Below, one piece after another: positions 4,452-47,341 of a stretch of 64,000 nucleotides of DNA (positions within the stretch are counted from its first letter, which is position 1; each line of letters begins with the position of its first letter). This stretch comes from an uncultured archaeon. Its GTDB lineage: Archaea; Iainarchaeota; Iainarchaeia; Iainarchaeales; JAAZKV01. A program made the translations under genes and the position numbers. The stretch covers positions 224,621 through 288,620 of the forward strand of contig CAZHNO010000001.1 of the NCBI GenBank assembly GCA_964534045.1. Reading direction: 5' to 3'. Under the pieces are notes generated by a model. The model saw only the letters and a program-made list of their open reading frames with translations, did no database searches and was not told the origin of the DNA.

Positions 4452-5783
4452 ATGCGTGCTCAAGGAACAATTGAATATTTAGTTATTATTGCTGTTGTTG
4501 TGGTTGTTGCATTAATTGTTGTGGGTTTGCTAGTAACTTTAATGGATTCGGGCGGAGATATTTCTGGAACAAGCAATCAAATTAATTATAATACACAAAC
4601 TCTCGCTTTAAATGACTATATTGTTTCAACTGATGGAAACTTTTTATTAGAAATAAAGTCAAATGAAGTGGGAAACATAACAATAGATAACGTGTCTATT
4701 GATAATGAAGAACAAGATTTTACAACAAACAATACAATCAACCTTGGACAAGAAAGATTAATAAAAATAGAATCTAGCACAACATGTGAAGAAGGGCAAA
4801 CTGTGACAGCACAAACAATCACAATAACCTATACTTCAGCAAACGGATTAACAAAAAAACAAATTTACGAAAATGTATCAATTCCTTGTCAAAATTATAC
4901 AAATCCAAACCAAACCCAACTACTGGGTGGAACAACAACACAATCAGAAGAAGATGCAAGTTGTGATGATTATGCCACAACAGATGGAGAAGATATTACT
5001 GATGATGGAACATATTGCACGGCAGTGTTTTTATCAGATGGAACTTTTACCGCACTAACTTCATTTAACGCAGAAGTTCTTGTTGTTGCTGGTGGAGGCG
5101 GTGGTGGTGGACCAGTTCATGCAGGTGGTGGTGGAGCAGGCGGTCTTGTTTATGATGATTCTTATTCCATTTCTCCAGGAGAAATTGAAGTTGTTGTTGG
5201 AGCTGGTGGTGCTGGTGGTGAAGGATGGAACATAACAACGAGCCCGGGGGAGAATGGTTCAAATTCAATATTCGATTCTATTGAAGCAATTGGTGGTGGC
5301 GGTGGAGCATATTGGTATCAAGGTGCATCCACTGCAGGAATAGGTGGTTCTGGTGGTGGTGCTGCACCTGAGCCAGAGGCAGCAACTGGTGCTATAGGGA
5401 CGGATGGGCAAGGATATGCTGGTGGTGGATCTTATGGTAGTACTAATGCTGGTGGAGGCGGCGGGGCTGGAGAAGCTGGAGAAAAAGCAGTATCTGGAAA
5501 AGCTGGTGACGGTGGGGATGGTGTCGAATATGATATTTCAGGAGAATCTGTTTATTATGCTGGTGGAGGCGGCGGAGGTGTTCACGAAGGTACTGCTACT
5601 ATTGGCCAAGGTGGTTTAGGTGGTGGCGGTGATGGAGGCGGAAATACGGTTGGTACTGCAAATGGCAATGATGGAACTGCTAACACAGGAGGTGGCGGTG
5701 GAGGTGCAGGGGGGACATCAGGGAGTTCTTATGCTGGTGGTGCTGGAGGATCAGGAATAGTAATAATTAGATACTTAAAATAA
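4452..5783 (+). CDS. type IV pilin-like protein (class III signal peptide, QGTIEYL motif) with Gly-rich C-terminal domain
   Basis: N-terminus MRAQGTIEYLVIIAVVVVVALIVVGLL is an archaeal prepilin-type signal. The C-terminal ~250 aa are poly-Gly rich (GGGGGGGPVHAGGGGAGG...). The N-terminal ~163 aa are ~85% identical to the pilin-like protein at 31289. Confidence 0.6.
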   Translation: MRAQGTIEYLVIIAVVVVVALIVVGLLVTLMDSGGDISGTSNQINYNTQTLALNDYIVSTDGNFLLEIKSNEVGNITIDNVSIDNEEQDFTTNNTINLGQERLIKIESSTTCEEGQTVTAQTITITYTSANGLTKKQIYENVSIPCQNYTNPNQTQLLGGTTTQSEEDASCDDYATTDGEDITDDGTYCTAVFLSDGTFTALTSFNAEVLVVAGGGGGGGPVHAGGGGAGGLVYDDSYSISPGEIEVVVGAGGAGGEGWNITTSPGENGSNSIFDSIEAIGGGGGAYWYQGASTAGIGGSGGGAAPEPEAATGAIGTDGQGYAGGGSYGSTNAGGGGGAGEAGEKAVSGKAGDGGDGVEYDISGESVYYAGGGGGGVHEGTATIGQGGLGGGGDGGGNTVGTANGNDGTANTGGGGGGAGGTSGSSYAGGAGGSGIVIIRYLK

Positions 5784-11300: not shown

Positions 11301-13390
11301 AAATTATCTTTTAGCTCAATTAACATTTCATTTGTTTCCTCAGCATTTTCTCTAGCGGATTCTACATCAATTGAACTATTTTTTGCAGTAAGTGCTTCTA
11401 ATTGTTGATACAAACTATACAACTGACTAGCAGTGGCAACAAGTTGAGTAACATCAGCAGCATAAGTTTTTGTTGTTCCATTTGCAACCAACATTGATTT
11501 TAGTGATAATGATGAACTTCCCATTGCCGGAGCACATGATGCTGACAAATTAGTAGCACTTGTTACTGCAGCAGTTGCGGTATCAACATTAGTTGATAGT
11601 ATTATTGCATCTGCAGATAGTGCAGAAATGCTAGTAACCAAACTTAGTATTTGACTTGCTAATTGAGTTTTTTGTGAAGTATCCAAATCACCAAGTGAAT
11701 CTTCAACTTCTTTTAATGATTCTATCGCGTCATTTAATTCATCTAATGTTTCATTAATATAACCATCAAATTCTTTTCCTTCTAAATAAGCTCTTTTTAT
11801 TTTTTCATTTTCTTGTATTGATGTTGAATATGCTGTGCTTCTAACTGAATCAATATAAGGAATGGTTTTGAAAAACATTGATTGGTATAAACCATTTCCT
11901 GCATATCTTTCTGGATTGTTGTATAAATCATTAGTCCAGTTTTTTGAATTAGTGAACGTTCCTGTTAGTGGTAAACCTGAACCAATTTCTGCGCCTAGTG
12001 AACTTTCATACAAATTACAAATACTTGAATCAATTTCTATTTCTTCAGATAATTCATTATTCATTACTCTAATAGAATCTCTTGAACCCCTTTCAAATAA
12101 AGAAATTGAAAATTTATCAGGAACTAATAATTCATTTGTTGGTTTTACAAAAATTTCTTTTTCCCCAACAAAAGTCTTGTTTATTCCTGGCAAAGAAGCA
12201 TGCACTGTTAAACCATAAATTCCAGCCAAATCAACTCTGTTAATAGTAATTGTTTTTGTTGGAGAAGATTTTGTTAAAGTAAAAGCTGATGTGTTTAGTT
12301 CAATTATTCCTTCTTCTGCTCCTCCGGAACAACCAGCATCATTGTTACACAAAAAAATATTTATTTTTTCTGAATGACATTTACTTGAATTAATTGTTAT
12401 TGTTGCAGAATCATTTTCATTTTCTATTATTGCATCAACAACATCAATTTTTATACATTGTTCTAAATTTTCATTTGCTACTTCAAAATTTATTTTTTGC
12501 TCAGAATTGTCAATTTTTAATATAACAGAAAACTTTCCTTTTTCACCTTTTTTATTTGCTAAAGGAACATAATAAATTATTGCTTCATAATCACCAATAT
12601 TTGGGGCTGAATAAACTGATAATTCATCAGGAGTTAACAAAGAACCTTTTCCATTAGAAAAAATTATTTCTACATTTCCAATTCTTTCACTACCCCATTG
12701 AACACTTGCTTTCAAATCAGAGTAAGTTTCACAAGCAACCCTTAATTTTATTGGAGCTTCTAATAAGCCAGCATGAGTAGAATCAGAAAAAAATCCTTTA
12801 TTTACTAACAAACAACCCGTGCCAATAAATTCTTCAAAAAATATTTGATAAGGAATTTGTATTGTCATTACTTCAGAACCATCTTCTGATTCAAGAGTAA
12901 TAACAAAATTAAATTCAAAAAAATTCCCATCAACTAACTCTGAGTCAATTCCCAAATCAGCAAAATCAACTGTAAAAGTTACTGAACCATCTTCATTAAT
13001 TATAATAAATTCTGATGAAATGTTTGCAACAATTACCCCCTCACTGTTTGTTATCACCACATTAGTTGGTTTTAATTGTACTCCACCAGCATCCATTCTA
13101 AGCGTAATATTTCTAGAACTATCTTGTCCAGCATTAGTTATTATTGGCCTTCCAGGATTAGAAAAAGTATCAACTAATTCTCCATTAATTGTTAAGCTTC
13201 CTGTAAAAGCAATATCATTTTGATCTGGACTAGTTATTTTTATTCTATTAGTGCCTTGTGAAGGAAAAGCCAATAAGGCAATTAATAAAATAACTATTAT
13301 TGCAACAACTATTCCAATAATTATTCTCTTATCTGGTAAAGGACTTCCTGCTTTAGGTTCCTCTCTGTTATAATAACTTTCAACCTGCAT
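8381..13390 (-). CDS. giant membrane-anchored surface protein (1669 aa)
   Basis: N-terminal signal-anchor helix (IIIGIVVAIIVILLIALLAF). The first ~550 aa are beta-rich Ser/Thr/Asn-rich extracellular sequence. Residues ~560-900 are S/T/A/L-rich alpha-helical low complexity containing a Cys cluster CCNGTYCNAGCMCP. The remainder is a large C-terminal domain. No catalytic motif recognised. Confidence 0.6.
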   Translation of the reverse strand: MQVESYYNREEPKAGSPLPDKRIIIGIVVAIIVILLIALLAFPSQGTNRIKITSPDQNDIAFTGSLTINGELVDTFSNPGRPIITNAGQDSSRNITLRMDAGGVQLKPTNVVITNSEGVIVANISSEFIIINEDGSVTFTVDFADLGIDSELVDGNFFEFNFVITLESEDGSEVMTIQIPYQIFFEEFIGTGCLLVNKGFFSDSTHAGLLEAPIKLRVACETYSDLKASVQWGSERIGNVEIIFSNGKGSLLTPDELSVYSAPNIGDYEAIIYYVPLANKKGEKGKFSVILKIDNSEQKINFEVANENLEQCIKIDVVDAIIENENDSATITINSSKCHSEKINIFLCNNDAGCSGGAEEGIIELNTSAFTLTKSSPTKTITINRVDLAGIYGLTVHASLPGINKTFVGEKEIFVKPTNELLVPDKFSISLFERGSRDSIRVMNNELSEEIEIDSSICNLYESSLGAEIGSGLPLTGTFTNSKNWTNDLYNNPERYAGNGLYQSMFFKTIPYIDSVRSTAYSTSIQENEKIKRAYLEGKEFDGYINETLDELNDAIESLKEVEDSLGDLDTSQKTQLASQILSLVTSISALSADAIILSTNVDTATAAVTSATNLSASCAPAMGSSSLSLKSMLVANGTTKTYAADVTQLVATASQLYSLYQQLEALTAKNSSIDVESARENAEETNEMLIELKDNLTSLSDYLDLALESAAINDLSTSSKEDFEAYEYLLLAKSDADNAQMVLDNSLKKHLETLDDLTTLQDDSEASEEELIIAIAQLMQQILTQIGVLETKATIIQTSLTEAQTEMVLAKATAMSYFASCCNGTYCNAGCMCPMFIASSEFAITAIASAQSNTVANIAKIANLLSTLNNIYQAWELYKALNANYLSDLINAMTKFTEMTDVLYELQLGLANFNTSLDAAIEAAKHLSELEKLSSDASTYLDSLNIPADFGEYDKEKLVGMIGTLISNGFVNGAYDGGVYTTENTMQGLYVSVFGNLEENKNKKNNLFFSEANLLEDCDNRVKLKLVDYKINLLQDAKKVVVSNPNVLAYWSFTDPQVFGVFDKQEVGVIFSNAGIKENTYATVSLNAEKHIHSPTMNVTGEFGPFNIPDDSVELIEQKYHFKVNVKPRKDYSSESNATCEKASLIGDTGKEALPKIILDWKWDAINSETAKENYLDATQFSILLTKKLGVLNEFVSSAATNCPQNYAMLALTRMTPTEFALQQEASCFLPLTTRYYDGKPAIYYHSSQEAIVPEYYDSFFDEPLISSAEQMLDLLKFDVQLIRDGYGLEFQSDFTNYYTRVFLDSSPNFTDPLKGWYIYFKQPKKFYFTNETTDFKPEYDFVIPDAGLYSVKIIADFTEFPIIENGVANSNIIIDLYLKEPIKENYSPFYYTPFDGKVGLNAANDRRYYGTALNSGSELKIAEGMILGNNQKDAFSKINVKKESNILNLNSFASKRAVLLDYSMSKTIFSPTIATPLLFELNANQGQESIMNYWLKKEKTDLKATTNNLFLLTAMPNCKDFFGTNMLSYINETPDFRIGDKYGFGFLPAENSGKVFTKTMAYSPADAFYGLAFPQGMIIETTNSIEESGLIPLEGIKGMLYNDAAITNQIDGITSLMNAVSNESVCVSKLGNREIYWWSEEYLYEKENSEGKTIANSIKKASNECIK

Positions 13391-14481: not shown

Positions 14482-16029
14482 ATGAATAAAAAATTGAATA
14501 ATATTGCACAAGGAACAATTGAATATTTAGTAATTATTGCAATTATTATTGTCATTGGTTTACTTGTCGTTCAATTATCTTTGAGTTTATTTGATTCTGA
14601 AAGTGTTTCTAACACTAGTAATAAAATTGGTTCCAAAATTGGTTCTGGGAGCATTAGTATTTTAGAAGCAGTTGCTGATGATAATTCTTTAGTAATTGCT
14701 TTATCTTCAATAGGAACAGATGGAATAAATTTAACCAAAATTACTATTGATGGAGTAGAAAATTATTATGAAAATCAATACTTACTTAATGCTCGTAGTT
14801 TTATATTAACAGAATTATCAAACAATTGTGCCTGTTCTAGTATGCAGAGTTCTAGAACTTGTTCATTTCAATTCACTTACACTACAAGAAATGGTTTAAC
14901 AAAAACAACAGACCCAATAAACGTTACTATTAATTGTACAACAAACATAAATCAAGAAAATCCAAATTATACTCAACCAACAATACAAGATTGTTATGAT
15001 TTAACAGAAGATCCAATCCAAATTTGTACGCTTAGTGATTTGAATAAAATCAGAGATGATTTAAGTGCAAATTATCAACTAATGAACAATATTGATGCTT
15101 CATCTACAAACACTTGGAATAATGGAGAAGGTTGGGAACCAATCGGAGATGGAGATGAATATTTTACTGGAACATTTGATGGACAAAATTTTGAGATAAG
15201 TAATCTTTACATAAATCGAACAAATACTTATGTTGGCATGTTTGGTTGGACAAGTGGCCCAATTTCTAATGTTGGTTTAACTGATGTAAATATCACTGGA
15301 AGTAGTGGAATTGGCGGAATTTCTGGAAGAAATCATTCAACAATAAGTAATTCAAATGTTTCTGGAAATATTAATGGAAATAATAAAATTGGAGGCATTA
15401 GCGGTTTTAATTTTAGTACAATAACAACTTCACATTCAAGTGCAAACATTACTGGAACTTATGAAATTGGAGGAATATCTGGGTACATTGATGGAGGGAC
15501 AATTACTTTATCTTATTCAACAGGAAATATTACTGGAACTGGTGATAATATAGGTGGAATTTGTGGGCGTAATGAAACTGGTTCAATAACAAAATCATAT
15601 TCAACAGGGAATATCTTTGGAGAAGACAAAATTGGTGGTTTACTTGGTTATAATGATGGTGGAACAATAAGTAATTCTTATTCCACTGGAAATATAACTG
15701 CCAGTGGCAGTAGTGTTGGTGGGTTGATTGGCTCAACAACAGGTGGAACAATTAATTATTCTTATTCCATTGGAGAAGCAAGTGGAGTTAGTAATGTTGG
15801 CGGATTAGTTGGAAATAATATTTTAGGAACAGCAACAAATTCATATTGGAATGTTACAACATCAAACTTAGACACATCAGCACTCGGAGAAGGAAAAACA
15901 ACATCTGAGATGAAAACACAATCAACATTTACTAATGGAAGCTGGGATTTTGACACTATTTGGCAAATTCAAGAAGACACAACATATCCATATTTAATAG
16001 ATAATATTCAAAACCCATTACCCCAATAA
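14482..16029 (+). CDS. type IV pilin-like protein (class III signal peptide) with C-terminal GLUG-type repeats
   Basis: N-terminus MNKKLNNIAQGTIEYLVIIAIIIVIGLLVV. The C-terminal half is tandem ~22-aa repeats of the form IGGISG.N.STI.NS.S.GNITG / VGGLIG...GGTI.YSYS.G. Confidence 0.6.
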   Translation: MNKKLNNIAQGTIEYLVIIAIIIVIGLLVVQLSLSLFDSESVSNTSNKIGSKIGSGSISILEAVADDNSLVIALSSIGTDGINLTKITIDGVENYYENQYLLNARSFILTELSNNCACSSMQSSRTCSFQFTYTTRNGLTKTTDPINVTINCTTNINQENPNYTQPTIQDCYDLTEDPIQICTLSDLNKIRDDLSANYQLMNNIDASSTNTWNNGEGWEPIGDGDEYFTGTFDGQNFEISNLYINRTNTYVGMFGWTSGPISNVGLTDVNITGSSGIGGISGRNHSTISNSNVSGNINGNNKIGGISGFNFSTITTSHSSANITGTYEIGGISGYIDGGTITLSYSTGNITGTGDNIGGICGRNETGSITKSYSTGNIFGEDKIGGLLGYNDGGTISNSYSTGNITASGSSVGGLIGSTTGGTINYSYSIGEASGVSNVGGLVGNNILGTATNSYWNVTTSNLDTSALGEGKTTSEMKTQSTFTNGSWDFDTIWQIQEDTTYPYLIDNIQNPLPQ

Positions 16030-23485: not shown

Positions 23486-24595
23486 ATGAAGAAAATAATT
23501 TTCGCACTATTTTTGCTTTTATTAGTTGGTTTTGTTAGTGCCCTAACAATAGACGAAATTAATTTACAAAGTGGAGACAAAACATCTGTTGTTTTTTTTA
23601 AAACAGAAACTTGTCCAAATTGTGCAGCAGTTGATGCTTGGTTGCAAGGAATAGAGCCAGAATATGATAATGTAATTGTTTATAGATTGTATCCAAATGA
23701 AGAAACTGAATTGTTAATGAAATTATATGATATTTACAATGTTCCCCTTAATGAAAGAAATTATGTTCCAATAATTTTTCTTGCAGACAAATATTACTTG
23801 GGAAGGGATCAAGCAATTAATAATTTAGAAAATGATTTCAAAAGTTTTACTGAAAAAAAAGAATTACTAACAAGCACAAATAATGGAAATGAAGAAAACG
23901 AGATAAATATTTTTTATGTTTTGTCATTAGCATTAGTTGATGCTGTAAATCCTTGTGAATTAGCTGTGCTAATAATTTTGATGACAGCAATCTTAACAAG
24001 ATTCCCTGAAAAAAAAGGAAAAGCTTTGAAAGCTGGTTTGCTTTTTACTTTAGCAATTTTCATAATGTATTTTATTTTTGGGTTATTTTTAGTTGAATTA
24101 TTTTCTTTTGTGTCAAACACATTTGGTTATGCATTCATGATAATTATTGCAATTTTAGCAATAATTTTAGGATTACTAAATATTAAAGATTATTTTAATT
24201 ATGGTGGCGGAGGGTTCATAATGGAAGTTCCACAAAAATGGCGTCCAAGAATGAAAGCAATAATTAATGGAACTACTTCACCAAAAGGAGCTTTTATTGT
24301 TGGTTTAATTGTTTCATTTTTCTTAACCCCTTGCACTGCTGGACCATATTTTATTTTCAGTGGGATAATGTCACAAATTGGTTTGTTAAATGCACTTCCT
24401 TATTTGTTAATTTACATGATAATTTTTATTTCACCAATGCTAGCAATAACTTTCATAACTTACTTTGGTTTTGCTCAAGTGCATGACATGGAAGAATGGA
24501 GAGGAAGAAACTTAAAAAAATTACATTTGATTGCTGGAATAATAATGCTTGCAATTGGTGCTTGGTTAATACTCACAACATTTGGAATAATTTAG
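23486..24595 (+). CDS. thioredoxin-like domain fused to a DsbD/CcdA-type transmembrane thiol-disulfide transporter domain
   Basis: Signal peptide, then CPNC redox motif in a Trx-like domain, then a polytopic domain with conserved NPCE and TPCTAGP cysteines (DsbD_2/CcdA pattern). Confidence 0.55.
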   Translation: MKKIIFALFLLLLVGFVSALTIDEINLQSGDKTSVVFFKTETCPNCAAVDAWLQGIEPEYDNVIVYRLYPNEETELLMKLYDIYNVPLNERNYVPIIFLADKYYLGRDQAINNLENDFKSFTEKKELLTSTNNGNEENEINIFYVLSLALVDAVNPCELAVLIILMTAILTRFPEKKGKALKAGLLFTLAIFIMYFIFGLFLVELFSFVSNTFGYAFMIIIAILAIILGLLNIKDYFNYGGGGFIMEVPQKWRPRMKAIINGTTSPKGAFIVGLIVSFFLTPCTAGPYFIFSGIMSQIGLLNALPYLLIYMIIFISPMLAITFITYFGFAQVHDMEEWRGRNLKKLHLIAGIIMLAIGAWLILTTFGII

Positions 24596-24797: not shown

Positions 24798-24950
24798 GCC
24801 CTGATAGTCTAGTGGTTAGGATGCACCCCTGTCAACTCGCGCAAGCGAGGTAGGAAATCCAAAGTTTTCTTTGGGCTACCCTACACCTTTCTTTTCCTAA
24901 AAGAAAGGGGCGGTTCGGGTGCGACTCGGGTTCGAGCCCCGGTCAGGGCG
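24798..24950 (+). tRNA. tRNA-Asp (anticodon GTC) with an ~81-nt intron at 37/38 (approx. 24835..24915)
   Basis: Acceptor GCCCTGA/TCAGGGC, D-arm GTCT-AGTGGTTA-GGAT, anticodon stem CACCC/GGGTG flanking CTGTCA|intron|C, T-arm TCGGG-TTCGAGC-CCCGG, discriminator G. The intron folds into several hairpins including a CTCGC-GCAA-GCGAG tetraloop hairpin. Confidence 0.6.
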
Positions 24951-31236: not shown

Positions 31237-31288
31237 AAAACAATTTAATAGCGAAACAAATTTAAATAAAAAAGAGAAACAATTTGTG

Positions 31289-32506
31289 ATGGCAAAAAAA
31301 ATTTTTGAAAAAAAAGCACAAGGAACGATTGAATATTTGGTTATTATTGCAATTGTTGTGGTTGTTGCATTAATTGTTGTTGGTTTACTAATAACTTTAA
31401 TGGGTTCTGGAGGAGATATTTCTGGAACAAGCAACCAAATAAATTATAAAACACAAACACTTGCTTTAAACGATTATTTAGTTTCAACAGACGGAAACTA
31501 TTTGTTAGAAATAAAATCAAACGAAGTTGGAAACATAACAATAGATAATATTTCTATTAATGGAGAAGACACACCCTTCACAACAAACAATACAATAAAC
31601 CTCGGACAAGAAAGATTAATAAAAATAGAATCCAGCACAACTTGTGAAGAAGGACAAAAAGTAGCCACACAAAACATAACAATAACATACACCACAACAA
31701 ATGGATTAACAAAAAAACAAACATACGAAAGTGTATCAATCCCTTGTCAAAATTATACAAATCCAAACGAAAACCAACTACTGGGTGGAACGACAAGCGA
31801 AGCATCTGAAGATGAAATTGATCCGGCCATAACCCAATTAAGAAGTGGTTTGGTTGGATATTGGCCACTTGATGAAACGAGCGGAACGACCGCTTATGAT
31901 AATTCAGGAAATGGGTATAATGGGGAATTAATTGACGGGGCAGTATTTGCTAGTGGTGGTTTAATTGAAGGCGCAGTAGATGTTGATCCAAGAAATACAT
32001 CCAATTATAAAAGAGTAATGATTGATATACCAAAACAAAATAGTTTTACATATCAAATTTGGAGTAAAAGATCTGTAACTGGACACCAAGAGCTTATTTA
32101 TAGAAGCAGTGATTCTACTTCTAGCCCATTATCAATGCTTGGTTTTGGAAATAACTCTCAATTTTTTATAAAACCATTTGGTTCGGAGCATTGGGGGCCA
32201 TCTGTTTCTTGCCCAGGCGATTATTGTTTTAGTAACATAGATATTTGGTATCACGTTGTAATAACTTATGATTCGGCAACTGGTGAACTTAAAAATTATG
32301 TTAACACTTTACCAATAATAAATCAGTCTGTTGGAGCCAGTCAAAGTGAAAGTGGAGACATACTCTTCTTTGGGGGAAGAAATACTAGTTGGGGTGGTCT
32401 AAGTGGACTAATTAGCGAAGCTGCGTTTTGGGATAGAGCATTAAGTTCGGATGAAATAGAATCACTTTATAATGAAGGAAATGGATTAAGCTTAAAAATT
32501 AGTTAA
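31289..32506 (+). CDS. type IV pilin-like protein (class III signal peptide) with C-terminal LamG/concanavalin-A-like lectin domain
   Basis: MAKKIFEKKAQGTIEYLVIIAIVVVVALIVVGLL. The N-terminal ~170 aa are ~85% identical to 4452. The C-terminus (GYWPLDETSGTTAYDNSGNGYNG...DIWYHVVITYDSATGELKNYVN...LISEAAFWDRALSSDEIESLYNEG) is a classic LamG-type jelly-roll pattern. Confidence 0.6.
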   Translation: MAKKIFEKKAQGTIEYLVIIAIVVVVALIVVGLLITLMGSGGDISGTSNQINYKTQTLALNDYLVSTDGNYLLEIKSNEVGNITIDNISINGEDTPFTTNNTINLGQERLIKIESSTTCEEGQKVATQNITITYTTTNGLTKKQTYESVSIPCQNYTNPNENQLLGGTTSEASEDEIDPAITQLRSGLVGYWPLDETSGTTAYDNSGNGYNGELIDGAVFASGGLIEGAVDVDPRNTSNYKRVMIDIPKQNSFTYQIWSKRSVTGHQELIYRSSDSTSSPLSMLGFGNNSQFFIKPFGSEHWGPSVSCPGDYCFSNIDIWYHVVITYDSATGELKNYVNTLPIINQSVGASQSESGDILFFGGRNTSWGGLSGLISEAAFWDRALSSDEIESLYNEGNGLSLKIS

Positions 32507-33219: not shown

Positions 33220-33462
33220 TTGCCTGGTGATTGGTTGGCTGATGAAAAAAGACACTATTTAGTTCCTGAACATGTACTTATCAGGAAAGAGAAAGCCGAC
33301 GAATTAATGAATGAACTAGGAATAAAAAAAGCTTCTTTGCCAAAAATTTCTAAACTTGATCCTGCTGTAAAAATTTTGAAGGCAGATAGGGGAGATGTTG
33401 TAAAAATTATTAGAGATTCTTTAACAGCTGGACAAACTACTTATTATCGGAGGGTTGTTTAA
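33220..33462 (+). CDS. rpoH: DNA-directed RNA polymerase subunit H (Rpo5)
   Basis: HYLVPEHVLIRKEKADELMNELGIKKASLPKISKLDPAVKILKADRGDVVKIIRDS matches the RpoH fold. The only in-frame start is TTG (first ATG is at residue 30). Confidence 0.7.
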   Translation: MPGDWLADEKRHYLVPEHVLIRKEKADELMNELGIKKASLPKISKLDPAVKILKADRGDVVKIIRDSLTAGQTTYYRRVV

Positions 33463-34934
33463 TGGCTGAACTTGGTTGGGAATTAATTGATTCTTATTTA
33501 AAAAGTAAAAGAATTGCACAAATGGAAATTGAATCTTTTAATCAATTTGTTGATACTAAATTACAAGATATTGTTGAAGAAAACAAGGATATTGTTCCAA
33601 AAATTGAAGAAGTTAAAATTGAATTAAGTAATATTGAAGTTGAAAAACCAAAAATAATTGAAGCTGATGGTTCTCCTAGAGAACAATTTTTACCAATGGA
33701 AGCTCGATTGAGAAATAGAACTTATGCAGGTCCATTGTATTTGACAATGAGACTTTATAGAAGAGATGTTGAACAGGACGCTAGAAGAACTTTTATTGGA
33801 GATCTTCCACTAATGGTTAAATCTGCTAAATGTTGGCTTGCTGAAATGAATGAAGAAGAATTAGTTGGAGCTGGAGAAGACCCAATGGATATGGGTGGTT
33901 ACTTTATTGTTAATGGTTCTGAAAAAGCACTAATGACACAAGAAGTATTGTCAAGTGATAGAGTACTAATTTCTGAAAGTGATAAGGGAGTTGCTGCTGA
34001 AGTAATTTCTACAAGAGGAGCTTTCAAAGGAAGAGTAAGAGTAACAAGAAGTCCTGAAGGATTATTGTATGGAACATTCCCAACAAGCCCAAGAAAATTA
34101 CCTTTATTTACATTATTCAAAGCACTTGGATTAAAAACACAAAAAGAAATTTTTGATGCATTCCCTGAAGAAATAGAAGTTCAAAATGATTTACACTTAA
34201 ATTGGGAAGAATGTGATATTAAAAAACAAGAAGATGCGTTGGATAAAATTGGAAAATATGTTGCACCAGGACAAGTAATTGATTATAGATTAAGAAGAGC
34301 AGGAGAAGTAATTGACGGATTTTTATTACCACACATTGGACAAGATGATCCAGCAAGATTAGCAAAAGCATATTACTTAGCAATGATGGCAACAAAAGCA
34401 ATTGAAAGAAGTTATGGTTTAAGAGGAAAAGATGATAAGGATCATTACACAAATAAAAGATTAGAATTAAGTGGAAAATTAATGGAACACTTATTCAGAT
34501 ACTCATTCAAATATTTTGTAAAAGATTTAAGATTCCAAATTGACAGAACAGTTACAAGAAGAAGAAAATTAAATATTTCTACAATTGTAAGACCTGGAGC
34601 TGTTAGTGAAAGAATTAGATTTGCAATGAGCACTGGTAATTGGATTGGAAGAAGTACTGGTGTAGCAAAATTCATGGATAGAGTAAATTATTTAGCTCCA
34701 TTAACTGATATGAGAAAAGTAAAATCACAATTAGCAAAAACTAGAGAACTTTATGAAGCAAGAGATGTTCATGGAACACACTGGGGAAGATTAGATCCAA
34801 TTGAAACTCCTGATGGACCACAATGTGGATTAGTAAAAAATTTATGTTTCATGGCTGAAGTAACAACAGAAGCAAGAGAAGAACCTATTGAGGATTTCTT
34901 ACATCAACAGGGAGTAAAATTAAAGAAAATTTAA
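33462..34934 (+). CDS. rpoB2: DNA-directed RNA polymerase subunit B'' (N-terminal part of split Rpo2)
   Basis: Full-length similarity to the archaeal Rpo2N pattern; start overlaps the rpoH stop (ATGs... TAATGG). Confidence 0.85.
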   Translation: MAELGWELIDSYLKSKRIAQMEIESFNQFVDTKLQDIVEENKDIVPKIEEVKIELSNIEVEKPKIIEADGSPREQFLPMEARLRNRTYAGPLYLTMRLYRRDVEQDARRTFIGDLPLMVKSAKCWLAEMNEEELVGAGEDPMDMGGYFIVNGSEKALMTQEVLSSDRVLISESDKGVAAEVISTRGAFKGRVRVTRSPEGLLYGTFPTSPRKLPLFTLFKALGLKTQKEIFDAFPEEIEVQNDLHLNWEECDIKKQEDALDKIGKYVAPGQVIDYRLRRAGEVIDGFLLPHIGQDDPARLAKAYYLAMMATKAIERSYGLRGKDDKDHYTNKRLELSGKLMEHLFRYSFKYFVKDLRFQIDRTVTRRRKLNISTIVRPGAVSERIRFAMSTGNWIGRSTGVAKFMDRVNYLAPLTDMRKVKSQLAKTRELYEARDVHGTHWGRLDPIETPDGPQCGLVKNLCFMAEVTTEAREEPIEDFLHQQGVKLKKI

Positions 34935-34961
34935 ATTGAGGATTATGTGGGTTGATTAAAG

Positions 34962-36776
34962 ATGGCACGATTAGCAAAAGTATATATTAATGGAAGATTA
35001 ATTGGTTTCCACGAAGATGCAGAAAAATTAACAGAAATTGCAATCAATGCTAGAAGAGAAGGTGCTTTGCCAACTCAAACAAATGTTGCTTTCCACAAAG
35101 ACACTAATGAAATTTATATTAACACTGATGCTGGAAGATTACAAAGACCATTAATAGTTGTAAAAAATGGAAAGAGTGCTTACACAAAAGAAATGGCAGA
35201 AAAAGTTGACAAAGGAGAATTAAATTTCCACAAATTAATTGAAATGGGAATTGTAGAATATTTAGATTCTGAAGAAGAAGAAAATGCATTGGTTGCAGAA
35301 AAAGAAGAGGATATTACTAGTGAACATACTCACTTAGAAATTAATGGTGCGGCAATATTGAGTGTTATTTCATCAATGGTTCCGTTCATCCAACACGACA
35401 TGGCAGGAAAAGCTTTGCACGGAGACAAGATGTTCAAACAAGCAATTGGAATTGGAACAATAAATTATAAATTAAGACACGATACTGAAGGATATTTACT
35501 TTACTACCCTGAAAAGAGTATTACTAAAACAAAAACAATGGATGTTTTAGAATTAGATAAGAGACCACAACAACAAAACTTTGTTGTAGCGATTATGCCC
35601 TATTATGGTTTCAATACAATGGATGCTTTAGTATTAAATCAAGGCGCTGTAGATAGAGGTTTGGCAAGAGCTTGTTATTTTAGAGGTTATGAAGCTAACG
35701 AGCAAAGATATCCTGGTGGACAGAGAGATAAATTTGAAATTCCAACAGAAGAAAAGGTTGGTTTTGTTGAAGAAGAAAAATACAATAAATTGGGCGCTGA
35801 TGGTTTATCAGAAGTTGAACAAATTGTTGCAGAAGGGGATGCTGTAATTGGAAGAACAGCTCCACCAAAATTCTTTGAAGAAATGAATGATTTTGGAACT
35901 GAACAAGAACAAAGAAGAGATGCTAGTGTTTTGGTAAGAAAAAAGAAAGATGGTGTTGTTGACACAGTAATGGTAACTGAAGGCCCTGATGGATCAAGAT
36001 TAGTAAAGGTAAAAGTTAGAACAACTTTGAAGCCAGCAGTTGGAGACAAATTAGCTTCAAGACACGGACAAAAAGGTGTTGTGAGTTATATTGTTCCTGA
36101 AGAAGATATGCCATTCACAATTGATGGAGTAAGACCTGATTTAATTTTGAATCCACATTCAATCCCTTCAAGAATGACAATGGGACACTTATTAGAAATG
36201 CTTGGTGGAAAAGCAGCAGCAGCAAACGGAAAAATTATTGACGGAACACCATTCAATTCAACAACACAAGCAGAAATGGAAGAAATATTAAAATCACACG
36301 GATTTAGAGAAGACGGAATGGAAACTTTTTACGATGGAATAACAGGAAAAAGAATTGAAGGAGCAATCTTTACAGGAGTAATCCCTTACCAGAAACTTTA
36401 CCACGTTGTTGCACACAAAATACAGGCAAGAGCAAGAGGACCTGTACAAATGTTAACAAGACAACCAACAGAAGGAAAAGAAAAAGAAGGTGGATTAAGA
36501 TTTGGAGAGATGGAAGGTGAAACATTAGTTGGTCACGGAGCAGCAATGCTATTACAAGAAAAAATGATTGAAGATTCTGATAAATTTGTAGCATTAGTTG
36601 ATGAAGAAACAGGAATGCTTGGATTCAGAGATGATATTAGAAAGAAAAATGTTACACTTGGAAGCAAAGGTGGAAAAATGTATCCAGTTGAAATGTCATA
36701 CGGATTCAAATTATTATTAGAAGAATTGAAAGCGTTAGGAATTTGGGCAAAAATAAAATTAGAGGATAAGGTGTAA
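34962..36776 (+). CDS. rpoB1: DNA-directed RNA polymerase subunit B' (C-terminal part of split Rpo2)
   Basis: Conserved GDK.ASRHGQKGV and hybrid-binding/anchor motifs. Confidence 0.85.
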   Translation: MARLAKVYINGRLIGFHEDAEKLTEIAINARREGALPTQTNVAFHKDTNEIYINTDAGRLQRPLIVVKNGKSAYTKEMAEKVDKGELNFHKLIEMGIVEYLDSEEEENALVAEKEEDITSEHTHLEINGAAILSVISSMVPFIQHDMAGKALHGDKMFKQAIGIGTINYKLRHDTEGYLLYYPEKSITKTKTMDVLELDKRPQQQNFVVAIMPYYGFNTMDALVLNQGAVDRGLARACYFRGYEANEQRYPGGQRDKFEIPTEEKVGFVEEEKYNKLGADGLSEVEQIVAEGDAVIGRTAPPKFFEEMNDFGTEQEQRRDASVLVRKKKDGVVDTVMVTEGPDGSRLVKVKVRTTLKPAVGDKLASRHGQKGVVSYIVPEEDMPFTIDGVRPDLILNPHSIPSRMTMGHLLEMLGGKAAAANGKIIDGTPFNSTTQAEMEEILKSHGFREDGMETFYDGITGKRIEGAIFTGVIPYQKLYHVVAHKIQARARGPVQMLTRQPTEGKEKEGGLRFGEMEGETLVGHGAAMLLQEKMIEDSDKFVALVDEETGMLGFRDDIRKKNVTLGSKGGKMYPVEMSYGFKLLLEELKALGIWAKIKLEDKV

Positions 36777-36778
36777 AA

Positions 36779-37015
36779 ATGAAAAAAAGCATGAAAACCA
36801 TTTGGATAATTACATTAATCCTAACAATAATTTTTGCAACACTTGGTTTTGTTTTCGCACCAATACTTTGTTCAAGCACAAGTTCTTGTGGAGCATTGTC
36901 CTTAATGGGCGTTGGATTTCTTTTACTAGCTGTGTTAACATTCATTTTGTTAATAGTAGAAACGGCTTACGTCATAGTCAAAAAAATTACAAGAAAAACA
37001 GGTGAGAAAAAATGA
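36779..37015 (+). CDS. small two-TM membrane protein (78 aa) embedded between rpoB' and rpoA'
   Basis: ATG 3 nt after the rpoB' stop; its TGA overlaps the rpoA' ATG (ATGA). Two hydrophobic helices. Confidence 0.35.
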   Translation: MKKSMKTIWIITLILTIIFATLGFVFAPILCSSTSSCGALSLMGVGFLLLAVLTFILLIVETAYVIVKKITRKTGEKK

Positions 37016-39612
37016 TAATGAAAAAGATTGGAAGTATTGAGTTCACTTTGCTTGGGCCTGAAATGATTAGAAAAATGAGTGCTGTAGAAATCAAGACACC
37101 TGAAACTTATGATAAAGATGGTTTCCCAATGGAAGCCGGATTAATGGACGCACATTTAGGAGTAATTAATCCAGGAATAAGATGTAAAACTTGTGGACAA
37201 ACAATGAGAGAATGCCCAGGACACTTTGGACATTTAGAATTGGAAAGACCAGTTGTTCATTCTGAGTTTGGAAGAAAAATAGAACTTTTATTGAATGCAA
37301 CTTGTAAAGAATGTGGACACATACTATTACCAAGTGAACAAATAAAAAAAATGCAAGAAGAAACACACGGAAGAGTAAAAGATTTTTCAAAAAGAATTGT
37401 GTTAAAAGCAAAAACAATGAAAAAATGCCCAAATTGTAATGCTGTAGTTGGAAAAATTTTATTAGACAAACCAACAAATTTTTATTTTAATAAAGAAAGA
37501 ATTTATCCAACACAAATAAGAGAATGGGTAGAAAAAATTCCTGAAGACCAATTAAAAATATTAGGTTATGACACAAACAGAATCAGACCAGAATGGTTTG
37601 TAATAACAGTGTTACAAGTGCCTCCAATAACAATTAGACCAAGTATTTCTTTAGAAGGTGGAATAAAATCAGAAGATGATTTGACACACAAGCTAGTTGA
37701 TATTGCAAGAATTAATGCAAGATTAAAAGATAACATTGAAGCCGGAGCACCACAATTAATAATTGAAGATTTATGGGATTTATTGCAATACCATATAACA
37801 ACTTACTTTGATAATAACACAGCCGGAGTTCCTCCAGCAAAGCACAGAAGTGGAAGGCCATTGAGAACAATTATACAAAGATTGAAAGGAAAAAAAGGAA
37901 GATTCAGATATAACTTAACAGGAAAAAGAGTAAATCATGCCGCACGTTCAACAATTGTTCCTGATCCATATATTGATATTTCAGAATTAGGTGTGCCAGA
38001 AGAAGCAGCAAAAGAATTAACTGTTCCTGAATTTATTACAGAATGGAATTTAGCAACAATCAAAAAACAAATAAAAGAAACTTCTGATCCTGTTTACATA
38101 ATTAGACCAAACGGAACAAGAAGAAAAGTTACTGAAGAAAACAAAGAAGAAATTTTAACAGAAATTGATATTGGATACAGATTAGAGAGAAATTTGAGAG
38201 ATGGAGATATTGTTTTATTCAACAGACAACCATCACTACACAGAATGAGTATGATGGCACACACAGCAAGAATAATGCCTGGAAAAATATTTAGAATAAA
38301 TCCAATCGTTTGTGCACCATACAACGCTGACTTTGATGGAGATGAAATGAACTGCCACGTTCCACAAACAGAAGAAGGAAAAGCAGAAGCGAAAAGATTA
38401 ATGTTAGTAAGAGATCAAGTAATTTCTCCACGATTCGGTGCGCCAATAATTGCCCCTGCAGAAGATGGAATTTCAGGAATGTTTGCACTAACAATGCCAC
38501 AAACAGAATTCTCAAAAGAAGAAGCAATGCAATTAATGTATGAAATTGGAGTAACAGAATTACCAAAACCTGATAAAGGAAAAAATTATTCAGGAAAATT
38601 AATTTTCTCACAATTATTGCCAAAAGATTTGACTATGGAATTTGATTCATTCACAGGAAAAATATTAAAGGGAGTTGGCGTAGAGCACGAAATTGGAGAA
38701 AAAGTAATAATTGAAAATGGATTTTTAAAACAGGGAACAATTGATGCAAATGCTTTGAGTGGAGGAAGAGGACAATTAGTTGATAAATTAGCTAGAGAAT
38801 ATCCAAGCGAAATAATAGAAAAATTTTATCACGGATTGAACAGATTAATGGCATATGTATTAACATCAAAAGGAATGACTGCATCATTAGAAGAATACAA
38901 AACAAGCGATGAAATAAAGAAAGTGAAAAAGAGAGCTGTTGATGAAGCTTTCAAAAAAGGAAAAGCATTGGTTGATTCTTATGAAAGTGGAAAAATGGAA
39001 ATTATTCCAGGAAGAACACTTGACCAATCATTTGAACAATACATGATGAGAGTTGGTTTTGAAACAAAAGAAAAAGTAGAGAAAGAAGTAACAAAAGAAA
39101 AATTATCTTATGTGACAACAGAAAAACCAAAACTAAATACAATTGCAATGATACTAGCAAAATCAAGAGGAAGTACAATTAACTTAATGAACATTGCAGG
39201 GTTCTGGGGCCAAGCGAGTGTTCGTGAAGGAAGACCAAGGAAAGGATTCACTAAAAGATTAATCACATCAAACAGAAGAGGCGATGTGGGATTAGCTGCG
39301 GGTGGATTCATTGATAATAATTTCTTAGATGGAATGACAGCAAAACAATACTTCTACCACGCAATGGGTGGAAGACAAGGAGAAGTAGACACTGGTGTTT
39401 CAACAAAAGTATCAGGATATTTATATAGAAGACTAGCAAACGCATTGAAAGATTTGGTTGCTGCTCCAGACGGCACAGTAAGAACTGCAGCAAATTCATT
39501 AATACAATACAGATATGGAGAAGATGGAATTTTCCCAAAAAGTACTCAACATGGATTAAGTGTTGATGTAAAGAAAGAATATGAAGAATTAAAAAGAACA
39601 GGAGGAATTTAA
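37012..39612 (+). CDS. rpoA1: DNA-directed RNA polymerase subunit A' (Rpo1N)
   Basis: Zn motif CKTCGQTMRECPGHFGHLEL and catalytic NADFDGDEMN. Confidence 0.85.
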   Translation: MIMKKIGSIEFTLLGPEMIRKMSAVEIKTPETYDKDGFPMEAGLMDAHLGVINPGIRCKTCGQTMRECPGHFGHLELERPVVHSEFGRKIELLLNATCKECGHILLPSEQIKKMQEETHGRVKDFSKRIVLKAKTMKKCPNCNAVVGKILLDKPTNFYFNKERIYPTQIREWVEKIPEDQLKILGYDTNRIRPEWFVITVLQVPPITIRPSISLEGGIKSEDDLTHKLVDIARINARLKDNIEAGAPQLIIEDLWDLLQYHITTYFDNNTAGVPPAKHRSGRPLRTIIQRLKGKKGRFRYNLTGKRVNHAARSTIVPDPYIDISELGVPEEAAKELTVPEFITEWNLATIKKQIKETSDPVYIIRPNGTRRKVTEENKEEILTEIDIGYRLERNLRDGDIVLFNRQPSLHRMSMMAHTARIMPGKIFRINPIVCAPYNADFDGDEMNCHVPQTEEGKAEAKRLMLVRDQVISPRFGAPIIAPAEDGISGMFALTMPQTEFSKEEAMQLMYEIGVTELPKPDKGKNYSGKLIFSQLLPKDLTMEFDSFTGKILKGVGVEHEIGEKVIIENGFLKQGTIDANALSGGRGQLVDKLAREYPSEIIEKFYHGLNRLMAYVLTSKGMTASLEEYKTSDEIKKVKKRAVDEAFKKGKALVDSYESGKMEIIPGRTLDQSFEQYMMRVGFETKEKVEKEVTKEKLSYVTTEKPKLNTIAMILAKSRGSTINLMNIAGFWGQASVREGRPRKGFTKRLITSNRRGDVGLAAGGFIDNNFLDGMTAKQYFYHAMGGRQGEVDTGVSTKVSGYLYRRLANALKDLVAAPDGTVRTAANSLIQYRYGEDGIFPKSTQHGLSVDVKKEYEELKRTGGI

Positions 39613-40914
39613 ATGGCAAAAGACGAATTTGAAGAGAAAGATATTGGCGAAGAAGTTGAAGAAGCCGAAACAGAAGAAGAGACTCCTGAAGAAGAAGCAA
39701 TTGAAGAAGTTGAAACTGAAGAAGAAAAAATTGATGCTAAAGAAGCAAAGGAATTAAAGAAAAAATCTAAAGATGATAAAAGAATTTATGAAGAAGAAGA
39801 AAGAAGTTGGGAACAAGTAGAAATGCCAAAAAAACTTGTTGAAGAAATTGTTGCAATATCAGAAGTGTTTGGATTAAATAAAGAACAAGCAAATACACTA
39901 GCAGATATTGTAAAAAATAAGTACGATGCGGGACTAGTTGAACCTGGAGAAGCAGTAGGAATCATAGCAGCACAATCACTGGGAGAACCCGGAACACAAT
40001 TAATGCTAAGAACAAAACACTTTGCTGGATCAGCAGAAGTTTCTGTAGGTTCAGGAATACAAAGAGTAGAAGAAATTGTTGATGGAAGAAGCAAATCAAA
40101 ATACCCAACAATGACAATTTACTTAAATGATGACATAAAAAAAGACAGAACAAAAGCAGAAAAGTTTTCTAAAGAATTAATTGATGTAAGAGTAAAAGAC
40201 ATTACAAAATTAAGCGAAAATTTTGAAGAATTAAAATTTGCAATAGAAATTGACAAGGAGAAGGTAAAAGAATTACGACTTGATTTAGACGAAATTGTAG
40301 AAGTAATAAAAGCAGGATTAAAAGATTTGAAGTCAAGGCAACAAGAAAACAAAATTTATTTACAAATTGATAAAAAATCTGATTTATTAAAAGTAAGAAA
40401 AGATTTACTAAAAATACTTGAAGAAAAAGTACACGGAATAAAAGGAATCGAAAAAACTGTTCTAGTTGAAGAGGATGGAGAATTTGTAGTAAAAACATCA
40501 GGAAGCAATTTGAAAGCAGTAATAAAATTGGAAGAAGTTAATCCAGAAAAAGTATTCACAAATGATATTATAGAAACATCAAAAATACTAGGAATAGAAG
40601 CAGCAAGACAATTAGTTGTACAAGAATTAAAGAAAGTTTTAGATGATAATGGAATTGCAGTTGATGTAAGACACATAATGTTACTAGCAGATTTGATGAC
40701 ATTTAGTGGAGAAATCAAAGGAATTGTAAGAACAGGAATCAACAAACTAAAAGCATCTCCTTTCGCAAGAGCATCATTCGAAGAAACAACAAAACACTTA
40801 CTTGATGCAGCATTCAAAGGAGAAAGCGAAAACCTAACAGGAGTTGTAGAAAACTTAATTGTAGGACAACCTGTAAAAGTAGGAACAGGAATTGTTGAAT
40901 TATTGATGAAATAA
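39613..40914 (+). CDS. rpoA2: DNA-directed RNA polymerase subunit A'' (Rpo1C) with ~70-aa acidic N-terminal extension
   Basis: GGAGG RBS. GEPGTQLMLRTKHFAG trigger-loop region. The N-terminus is poly-E/K (EEVEEAETEEETPEEEAIEEVETEEEK). Confidence 0.8.
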   Translation: MAKDEFEEKDIGEEVEEAETEEETPEEEAIEEVETEEEKIDAKEAKELKKKSKDDKRIYEEEERSWEQVEMPKKLVEEIVAISEVFGLNKEQANTLADIVKNKYDAGLVEPGEAVGIIAAQSLGEPGTQLMLRTKHFAGSAEVSVGSGIQRVEEIVDGRSKSKYPTMTIYLNDDIKKDRTKAEKFSKELIDVRVKDITKLSENFEELKFAIEIDKEKVKELRLDLDEIVEVIKAGLKDLKSRQQENKIYLQIDKKSDLLKVRKDLLKILEEKVHGIKGIEKTVLVEEDGEFVVKTSGSNLKAVIKLEEVNPEKVFTNDIIETSKILGIEAARQLVVQELKKVLDDNGIAVDVRHIMLLADLMTFSGEIKGIVRTGINKLKASPFARASFEETTKHLLDAAFKGESENLTGVVENLIVGQPVKVGTGIVELLMK

Positions 40915-46075: not shown

Positions 46076-47341
46076 ATGGCAAATAAAGAATTAATTAATG
46101 TAGTTTTCATTGGACATGTAGATCATGGTAAGTCTACAACAGTTGGTAGATTACTTTATGATGGAGGAGCACTTTCTGAACAAGAATACAGAAAGTTAGA
46201 AGAGATTGCAAAAGAAAAAGGAAAAAGTACATTTGCTTTTGCTTACGCAATGGATAATTTGAAAGAAGAAAGAGAAAGAGGAGTAACAATTGATGTTTCA
46301 TACAAAAGATTTGATGCGAAGAAACACCAATTCACAATTATTGATGCTCCTGGACACAGAGACTTTGTAAAAAACATGATAACAGGAACTTCACAAGCTG
46401 ATGTTGCTGTATTAGTAGTTGCGGCAAAAGAAGGACCACAACCTCAAACAAAAGAACACGCATTCTTAGCACAAGTAATGGGAATAAAACAAATTGTTGT
46501 TGCTATTAACAAAATGGATGAAGTGGGTTATGAAGAAGCAAAATTTACTGCTGTTAAAAATGAAATGGCAAAAATGCTAAAAGGAATTGGATACAAAGAT
46601 GATAATGTAAAATTTGTGCCAATATCAGCATGGAAAGGAGATAACATTGTTAATAAAACAGATAACATAAAATACGCACCAAAAACATTGTTAGAAACTC
46701 TTGATGATATGCAAGCACCACCATCACCAGTTGATAAAGCATTGAGAATACCAATTCAAGATGTATACAACATTAAGGGTGTTGGAGCTATTCCAGTTGG
46801 AAGAGTTGAAACAGGAATTTTAAAATCAAATACACAAGTAATAGTAATGCCTTCAGGAAAGAAAGGTGAAGTAAAAGATATTGAAGAACACCACGAAAAA
46901 CTTGCTGAAGCAAGACCTGGAAACAACATTGGTTTCTCTATTAGAGGACTAAGTAAAGAAGACATGGGAAGAGGTGACGTTGTAGGACCAATTACTGCTC
47001 CACCAACAGTTGCTAAAGCATTCACTGCACAAATTGTTGTGTTGAACCACCCAACAGCTATACCCGTAGGATACACACCAGTATTCCACTTACACACTGC
47101 ACAAATGTCAATGAGTATAACTGAAATACAAAAGAAATTAAACCCAAATACTGGAGAAACTTTGGAAGAAAATCCAAAATTCTTGAAAACAGGAGATGCA
47201 GCAATAGTAAAAATTGTTCCAACAAAACCTGTTTGTGCGGAAAACTTTAAGGATTTCCCACAATTAGGAAGATTTGCAATAAGAGATATGGGACAAACAG
47301 TTGCAGCAGGAGTAATCCTAAGTATAGAAAAAAGAGAATAA
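46076..47341 (+). CDS. tuf: translation elongation factor 1-alpha (aEF-1A)
   Basis: [21 protein letters not shown] motifs; GGAGATTGGAGG RBS. Confidence 0.9.

Follow-up and report, generated by a model that had tools for sequence, protein, structure and literature searches.

How a protein that begins like an archaeal type IV pilin and ends in a LamG/ConA-like domain is displayed, and what it binds, is the question raised by one gene in a 64,000-nucleotide stretch of DNA from an uncultured archaeon of the Iainarchaeota (contig CAZHNO010000001.1, positions 224,621 to 288,620). This whole stretch is referred to below as the window, and the protein as the query. DPANN-type archaea with small genomes are presumed to spend their lives attached to other cells. 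To our knowledge, the molecules that they use for attachment are mostly unknown. LamG proteins and pili have been named separately as candidates for this attachment (PMC7414124, PMC9563170). The query unites both candidates in one polypeptide. The analysis described here suggests that the query is most likely a pilus-displayed adhesin. On balance, we favour the fuller account that it is a modular archaeal type IV pilin, which undergoes class III processing, assembles together with short pilins and carries a ligand-binding LamG head, and that the genome encodes several such pilins with different heads.

According to this account, a class III (EppA/TadV-type) signal peptidase would cut the query between Ala10 and Gln11. 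The helix would then leave the membrane and pack into the core of an Epd/Tad-like pilus made mostly of short pilins with a QGTIEY start. The LamG head, carried on a linker, would be exposed from the filament either at its tip or at its side. There it would bind a ligand, for which a glycan of a surface or of another cell is the most likely candidate. Several pilins with different heads (LamG, GLUG and glycine-rich) would provide one scaffold with a repertoire of binding specificities.

Domain organization of the query

A single open reading frame of 405 amino acids spans positions 31289-32506 exactly. When the structure of the query is predicted by AlphaFold from the single sequence, only the N-terminal third is folded. 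When it is predicted from a column-checked alignment of 27 full-length homologs with both modules (alignment A2), the mean predicted local distance difference test score (pLDDT) is 78. The resultant model consists of a disordered leader, a helix at residues 13-39, a short helix at residues 44-55, a seven-stranded beta-sandwich at residues 58-153 with a pLDDT of about 90, a linker that extends from residue 156 to about residue 187 (roughly 30-50 residues, in part with low confidence), and a C-terminal jelly-roll of two sheets at residues 188-397. The beta-sandwich is bracketed by two conserved cysteine residues, Cys119 and Cys153. Another pair, Cys308-x4-Cys313, is located in a low-confidence loop of the LamG domain. 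Between its helix and its LamG domain, the query contains a separate beta-sandwich pilin domain of ~115 residues, which is absent from the sequence-only reading of this gene.

That reading had assigned the C-terminal region to a LamG-type jelly-roll on the basis of three quoted motifs, and had named a Pfam search and a structure prediction as checks. The three motifs are all present in the translation. The Pfam search identifies Laminin_G_3 (PF13385, E 1.2e-14) at residues 248-390 with a score of 55.2 bits, far above the cut-off of 27.6 bits, together with a weak Pentaxin match (E 0.0038), and the structure prediction yields the jelly-roll fold. When the profile of alignment A2 is compared with the chains in PDB, the best matches are 4qvs (1.5e-28) and 5hon (8e-24), and neurexin, pentraxin and toxin HCN chains rank next; the matches to solved LamG, pentraxin, neurexin and toxin HCN structures span E values of 1e-28 to 1e-13. 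Because the Pfam, profile and fold evidence agree, the LamG assignment is real and does not reflect a chance likeness. The top structural matches of the jelly-roll are AbnA domain 4, trans-sialidase lectin domains, CBM40 and PilC. These results suggest that the C-terminal domain, within the LamG/ConA-like superfamily, most likely serves for binding and not for catalysis. AbnA domain 4 (5HON), the S-layer domain protein 4QVS, clostridial toxin HCN and pentraxins are likewise non-catalytic LamG/ConA-like domains, but none of them is joined to a pilin module.

Glycans are not the sole ligands of LamG/LNS domains, which also bind proteins and lipids, and therefore the ligand of the query is not deducible from its sequence. 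The display on a pilus may be as proposed, with the LamG domain recognizing a protein or a lipid, such as a protein in the S-layer or envelope of a host cell. The profile also matches domains that bind proteins or lipids, namely those of neurexin (LNS), pentraxin and clostridial toxin (HCN), and sugar-binding residues are not identifiable in the LamG domain. Nevertheless, a protein or lipid ligand appears doubtful, because the best structural matches listed above are carbohydrate-binding modules.

Pilin module

The N-terminal region of the query matches Class_IIIsignal (PF04021) at residues 8-31, with a score of 24.7 bits against a cut-off of 23.7 bits. The sequence around the predicted cleavage site, KKA/QGTIEYLVIIAIVVVVALIVVGLL (the slash marks the predicted cut), shows a short charged leader, a small residue at -1, Gln at +1, Glu at +5 and ~20 hydrophobic residues, as in a class III motif. 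The hydrophobic helix opens with QGTIEY and is roughly 28 residues long. In 153 family members, the residue at -1 is Ala (103) or Gly (50), 57% have Lys or Arg at -2, and the leaders have a median length of 12 residues. Gln(+1), Glu(+5) and Tyr(+6) are invariant among these members, by construction, as the set was chosen by the QGTIEY string. However, Gln11 to Leu17 are also invariant in two independent alignments (A3 and A5), and the conservation begins exactly at Gln(+1).

The N-terminal module has sequence matches in PDB to two archaeal pilins only, 6w8u (E 0.0059, with the single protein) and 8q30 (E 0.0074, with the family profile). The best structural matches of the beta-sandwich module also include solved archaeal pilins. 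In the model, an N-terminal hydrophobic helix is followed by a globular domain with an archaeal pilin fold. The earlier assignment of an archaeal type IV pilin-like N-terminus is thus borne out by the PF04021 match, by the helix with its beta-sandwich and by the matches to archaeal pilin structures. Identity as an archaellin was considered and rejected, since no archaellin family is matched in Pfam and Gln(+1) is a pilin-type motif.

The Methanococcus maripaludis pilins of the DUF361 family are processed by EppA, and their leader ends in a small residue followed by Gln(+1) and Glu(+5) (PMC3875500). These Epd pilins (DUF361/PF04021) share the register of the leader, with Gln(+1) and Glu(+5), with the query (PMC3875500). 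However, the major pilin of M. maripaludis has neither a globular domain nor Tyr(+6), whereas the QGTIEY family has Tyr(+6), the beta-sandwich and, in its long members, additional modules. Tyr(+6) of the QGTIEY family is also found in the 'EY' motif of bacterial Flp pilins. The solved archaeal pilins from Pyrobaculum (8FK7 and 6W8U), Sulfolobus acidocaldarius (Aap, 8Q30) and S. solfataricus (8FJS) are among the closest known systems, but these major pilins of Thermoproteota stand alone, lack a C-terminal module and differ in their signal motif.

The QGTIEY family

A profile of the N-terminal module was searched against 1.84 billion cluster representatives. It matches 1666 representatives at E <= 1e-3, 875 at E <= 1e-10 and 258 at E <= 1e-30. 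The module is always N-terminal, and the proteins that contain it are 149-1790 residues long. In the first homolog search, about 65 archaeal proteins match the query over the first 150-165 residues only, while the bacterial matches are confined to the LamG domain. A search of species-representative genomes for the peptide QGTIEYLV gives 130 relatives, all except one of which are encoded in metagenome-assembled genomes (MAGs) of uncultured archaea. Those that bear names are Ca. ainarchaeum, Iainarchaeum and Forterrea; the labels of the homologs also include Diapherotrites and, in one case, Woesearchaeota. Among the retained loci, a single MAG contains up to at least 7-8 family genes. Family members are also present on two short contigs binned as Candidatus Shapirobacteria (L014, JBAYMA010000069.1) and Sphaerochaetaceae (P0030), which are probably archaeal contigs that were mis-binned into bacterial MAGs.

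The C-terminal domains of the family vary. In 76 complete members, they include GLUG (16 members) and Laminin_G_3 (9 members), as well as Lcl_C, beta-propellers, FG-GAP, NHL and a glycine-rich domain; 15 of these 76 members pass PF04021 at E <= 1e-4. LamG heads recur in 16 of 67 first matches, at 10 of 93 GTDB loci and in 24 of 117 representatives, with one to six copies each. At the GTDB loci, roughly one-sixth of the members are short, with 149-190 residues, and comprise nothing but the module. These short members align over their full length with residues 1-155 of the query and end just past the second conserved cysteine, at the point where the query enters its linker. The helix is nearly identical in the short and long forms. 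A search with the short subfamily gives 312 matches at E <= 1e-5, of which the best 120 are all 148-172 residues long, and some short members are labelled 'class III signal peptide-containing protein' by NCBI.

Many other members have long leaders (P0008, P0043, P0053, P0058; L072 231-5477; L025 5902-7710; L033 5917-8409), in which degenerate versions of the cleavage motif (AQGTIE.., AQGLH.., GQGLS..), one to three per leader, precede the real QGTIEYL. In other MAGs, two or three modular pilin genes form tandem arrays (L069 4128-10510; L072 231-5477; L075 5063-9198).

Link to pilus machinery

In one related MAG, family pilins are encoded together with the assembly genes (L047, Table 1). One strand of this locus encodes, in this order, a T2SSE ATPase (PF00437, E 5e-32), two T2SSF platform proteins and two short family pilins. 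The divergent strand encodes four small proteins with class III-like N-termini and a protein of 879 residues, which has a class III-like start (RA/QSSIETL) and Laminin_G_3. The set of small genes recurs at another locus, L079. At a third locus, L018, a short pilin gene lies at a distance of about 2 kb from genes for an ATPase and a platform protein. It should be noted that a regular expression for the Walker A motif of pilus ATPases detected the L018 gene only; the L047 ATPase was overlooked by it and recovered by Pfam. Two ATPase homologs are located on contigs of 305,976 and 946,135 bp, and two contigs with family pilins have identical sizes. A single ATPase gene combined with two platform genes is the arrangement of the Epd/Tad-like 'system 1', which has been assigned to methanogens and DPANN (preprint 10.64898/2026.04.22.720090). 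The layout of L047 is that of this system, as for the Epd pilins of M. maripaludis. The 879-residue protein of L047 is a second, independent protein with a class III signal that bears a LamG domain.

Several results weigh against the query being a subunit of such a pilus. Neither a pilus ATPase nor a platform protein nor a prepilin peptidase is encoded in the window. The query gene and the two other family genes of the window lie among housekeeping genes, such as those for radical-SAM enzymes, a wyosine enzyme, PAP2, U32 peptidase and DUF2203; further neighbours are rpoH, rpoB and rpoA and the genes for elongation factors and ribosomal proteins. Machinery genes or a short pilin gene on the 314-kb source contig are not found among the best 120 matches of either search. 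A prepilin peptidase is not found in any fetched locus by a regular expression for the GxGD motif of A24 peptidases. In addition, the PF04021 score of the query is marginal, being just 1 bit above the cut-off, and solved pilins are matched weakly by sequence (E about 0.006-0.007).

The lack of machinery linked to the gene would agree with surface display of the LamG domain without a filament, with the class III signal and the helix either acting solely as a processed membrane anchor or forming a short pseudopilus like the bindosome of Sulfolobus. The bindosome proteins resemble the query in that they carry binding domains on a class III signal and are encoded apart from the assembly genes. However, they are solute-binding proteins of ATP-binding cassette (ABC) transporters and do not have the beta-sandwich module of a pilin. 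Display without a filament is considered unlikely, because the module of the query is a complete pilin with the helix and the sandwich rather than a signal alone, because this module is common to short stand-alone pilins encoded in a pilus operon, and because the near-identity of the helix between short and long forms is expected if both are packed together. Display of the query on a pilus remains the preferred account.

Two other explanations concern one end of the protein each. It is very improbable that the ConA-like domain is an enzyme, such as a GH16-type glucanase or a lyase, carried on a pilin: GH16 enzymes rank below LamG-type chains when the A2 profile is compared with solved structures, and no GH16-type catalytic motif is seen in the jelly-roll upon inspection by eye only. 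It is more improbable still that an ordinary Sec signal or signal-anchor forms the N-terminus and resembles pilins by coincidence, as might be argued from the generic nature of a basic n-region followed by a hydrophobic h-region and from the marginal PF04021 match, since QGTIEY is located exactly at the n/h boundary in the 153 members and is always preceded by Ala or Gly, the fold matches solved archaeal pilins, and the short members are linked to T2SSE/T2SSF genes.

Comparison with known modular pilins

The closest functional analogue of the query is PilC of Streptococcus sanguinis (PDB 7OA7/7OA8), a minor type IV pilin of modular build that includes a ConA-like lectin module. PilC is a lectin-bearing pilin that binds glycans (PMC9934059). 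It matches the query structurally, with a sequence identity of 12%, and because of this low identity the likeness is one of architectural convergence, not of orthology. PilC is bacterial and has a pilin module with an alpha-beta roll, the N-methylation motif IPR012902 and an extra Ig-like module, whereas the pilin module of the query consists of an archaeal helix and a beta-sandwich.

A function as a 'carbohydrate-binding adhesive pilin tip', which the sequence-only reading had proposed for the query, remains putative, and the interpretation given there is supported in part. A location at the tip is plausible by analogy with PilC (PMC9934059). Both tip and lateral display are compatible with the results, and the linker could allow a lateral position.

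PF13385 is among the commonest modules grafted onto bacterial pilins, and an architecture of the GLUG/M26 type is also listed (Raynaud et al. 2021, PMC8179133). The bacterial motif IPR012902 served as the seed of this survey, which does not mention archaea (PMC8179133). The QGTIEY family has PF13385 and GLUG heads in common with the bacterial pilins of this survey, but PF04021 takes the place of IPR012902. The query has the parts of a modular pilin: a pilin module (residues 11-155), a linker (residues 156-187) and a PF13385 domain that is not specific to pili. No family of the N_methyl type, which represents the bacterial prepilin motif, is matched by the query in the Pfam scan at E <= 10. Because the bacterial motif fails and the pilin fold is archaeal, the query is an analogue of the bacterial modular pilins by convergence and not a member of that set.

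Archaeal proteins with binding domains on a class III signal are already known, for example the bindosome proteins and a protein that carries a galactose-binding domain and is encoded in the Epd cluster. A description of modular pilins in archaea was not found in the open-access literature searched. The strategy of grafting binding modules onto pilins, known from bacteria, is extended to archaea by the query, apparently by convergence. The single gene would not surprise a pilus specialist, and the better lead is the expanded, unnamed family with swappable heads in archaea with small genomes. This family, with at least 875 representatives at E <= 1e-10 that differ mainly in their heads, provides clonable candidates for the recognition of hosts or surfaces.

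Paralogs in the window and exchange of heads

The window contains two paralogs of the query (Table 1), which share its type of N-terminus and are likewise absent from the sequence-only reading, and the three genes are dispersed over 27 kb. The pilin module of paralog 1 shows 84% amino acid identity to residues 9-175 of the query, and no similarity is detected beyond this region. The Class_IIIsignal score of paralog 1 is 21.3 bits, under the cut-off of 23.7 bits. Within its gene, the local guanine-plus-cytosine (GC) content rises up to 0.38, compared with roughly 30% for the window, which is that of a low-GC archaeon; this rise is probably explained by GGN-rich coding. Paralog 2 is a class III signal protein with the sequence AQGTIEYLVIIA..., and its GLUG head is the commonest head in the family.

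The cassette that is common to the query gene and the gene of paralog 1 extends from the Ala(-1) codon into the linker. The leaders, upstream regions and heads of these two genes are unrelated. Similarly, in several pairs of genes within other MAGs, the N-terminal modules are 62-89% identical, while the C-terminal regions either show no relationship or share an identity of only about 26-34%. As judged from these sequences, the discordance between module and head fits either recombination at the level of the module or a much stronger constraint on the module. Tentatively, we suggest that the QGTIEY module may serve as a common scaffold on which DPANN-type archaea shuffle binding heads by recombination, with crossovers at the invariant 5' segment and the linker. 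If so, every small genome would gain by shuffling a combinatorial set of pilus adhesins, and this set could decide the hosts or surfaces to which a cell attaches. This window has at least 3 such genes, and some MAGs have at least 7-8.

Gene start and coordinates of the features

With an alternative upstream start codon, TTG at 31226, the query gene would extend into the divergent gene for the U32 peptidase, which begins at 31236. An identical public protein (P0001) likewise starts at MAKKIF. The gene is also present in Logan run SRR11845625. The gap between the query gene and the U32 peptidase gene is 52 bp and contains the TATA-like box. From this arrangement, the transcript is inferred to be leaderless or near-leaderless, of the archaeal type. 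The coordinates are summarized in Table 1.

Table 1. Coordinates of the query gene, its parts, its paralogs and the pilus locus of a related MAG. Coordinates are those of the window, except for the last row.
Feature	Coordinates	Strand	Remarks
CDS (coding sequence), modular pilin-like protein of 405 aa (amino acids)	31289..32506	+	ATG at 31289; stop codon TAA at 32504-32506 included
TATA-like box, TTTAAATA	31261..31268	+	Direct sequence reading; ~24 nt 5' of ATG
Leader peptide, aa 1-10, MAKKIFEKKA	31289..31318	+	PF04021 match aa 8-31; predicted cut after Ala10
Mature N-terminus, aa 11-39, QGTIEYLVIIAIVVVVALIVVGLLITLMG	31319..31405	+	Hydrophobic alpha-1 helix; Glu(+5), Tyr(+6)
Pilin globular domain, aa 40-155	31406..31753	+	Short helix aa 44-55, then 7-stranded beta-sandwich
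Conserved Cys119	31643-31645	+	Pilin globular domain
Conserved Cys153	31745-31747	+	Pilin globular domain
Linker, aa 156-187, N/T/S/E-rich	31754..31849	+	Partly low confidence; pLDDT <50 at aa 164-173
LamG/ConA-like jelly-roll, aa 188-397	31850..32479	+	Pfam Laminin_G_3 part, aa 248-390, at 32030-32458
Pilin-module cassette common with paralog 1 (there at ~4458-4956)	31316..31814	+	85% nt identity over 499 nt
Paralog 1, pilin module and glycine-rich domain	4452..5783	+	Gly_rich_2 PF21722, E 6.6e-27
Paralog 2, distant pilin module (35% identity) and GLUG-motif domain	14482..16029	+	Glug PF07581, E 4.3e-17
Complete Epd/Tad-like pilus locus	L047 660-11665	both	Related MAG

Other features of the window

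The gene at 23486-24595 (+) encodes a secreted protein in which a thioredoxin-like CPNC motif is fused to a membrane domain of the DsbD_2/SfLAP type. This protein could represent an extracytoplasmic disulfide system relevant to the conserved cysteine pairs of the pilins. The product of the open reading frame at 8381-13390 (-), 1669 residues long, has a transmembrane segment at its N-terminus, is not matched by any Pfam family and may be a large surface protein. At 24798-24950 (+), a stretch of 153 nt matches tRNA in Rfam with 43 bits and is not reported by ARAGORN; it is probably an intron-containing archaeal tRNA gene.

An archaeal RNA polymerase operon is located at 33220-40914 (+), in which rpoB is split (33462-34934 and 34962-36776) and rpoA is split as well. 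The genes for EF-1alpha and ribosomal protein L3 are located at 46076-47341 (+) and 53507-54517 (+), respectively. RpoB', RpoA', EF-1alpha and L3 each form a singleton cluster at 90% identity, indicating that the collection contains no close sequenced relative of this archaeon.
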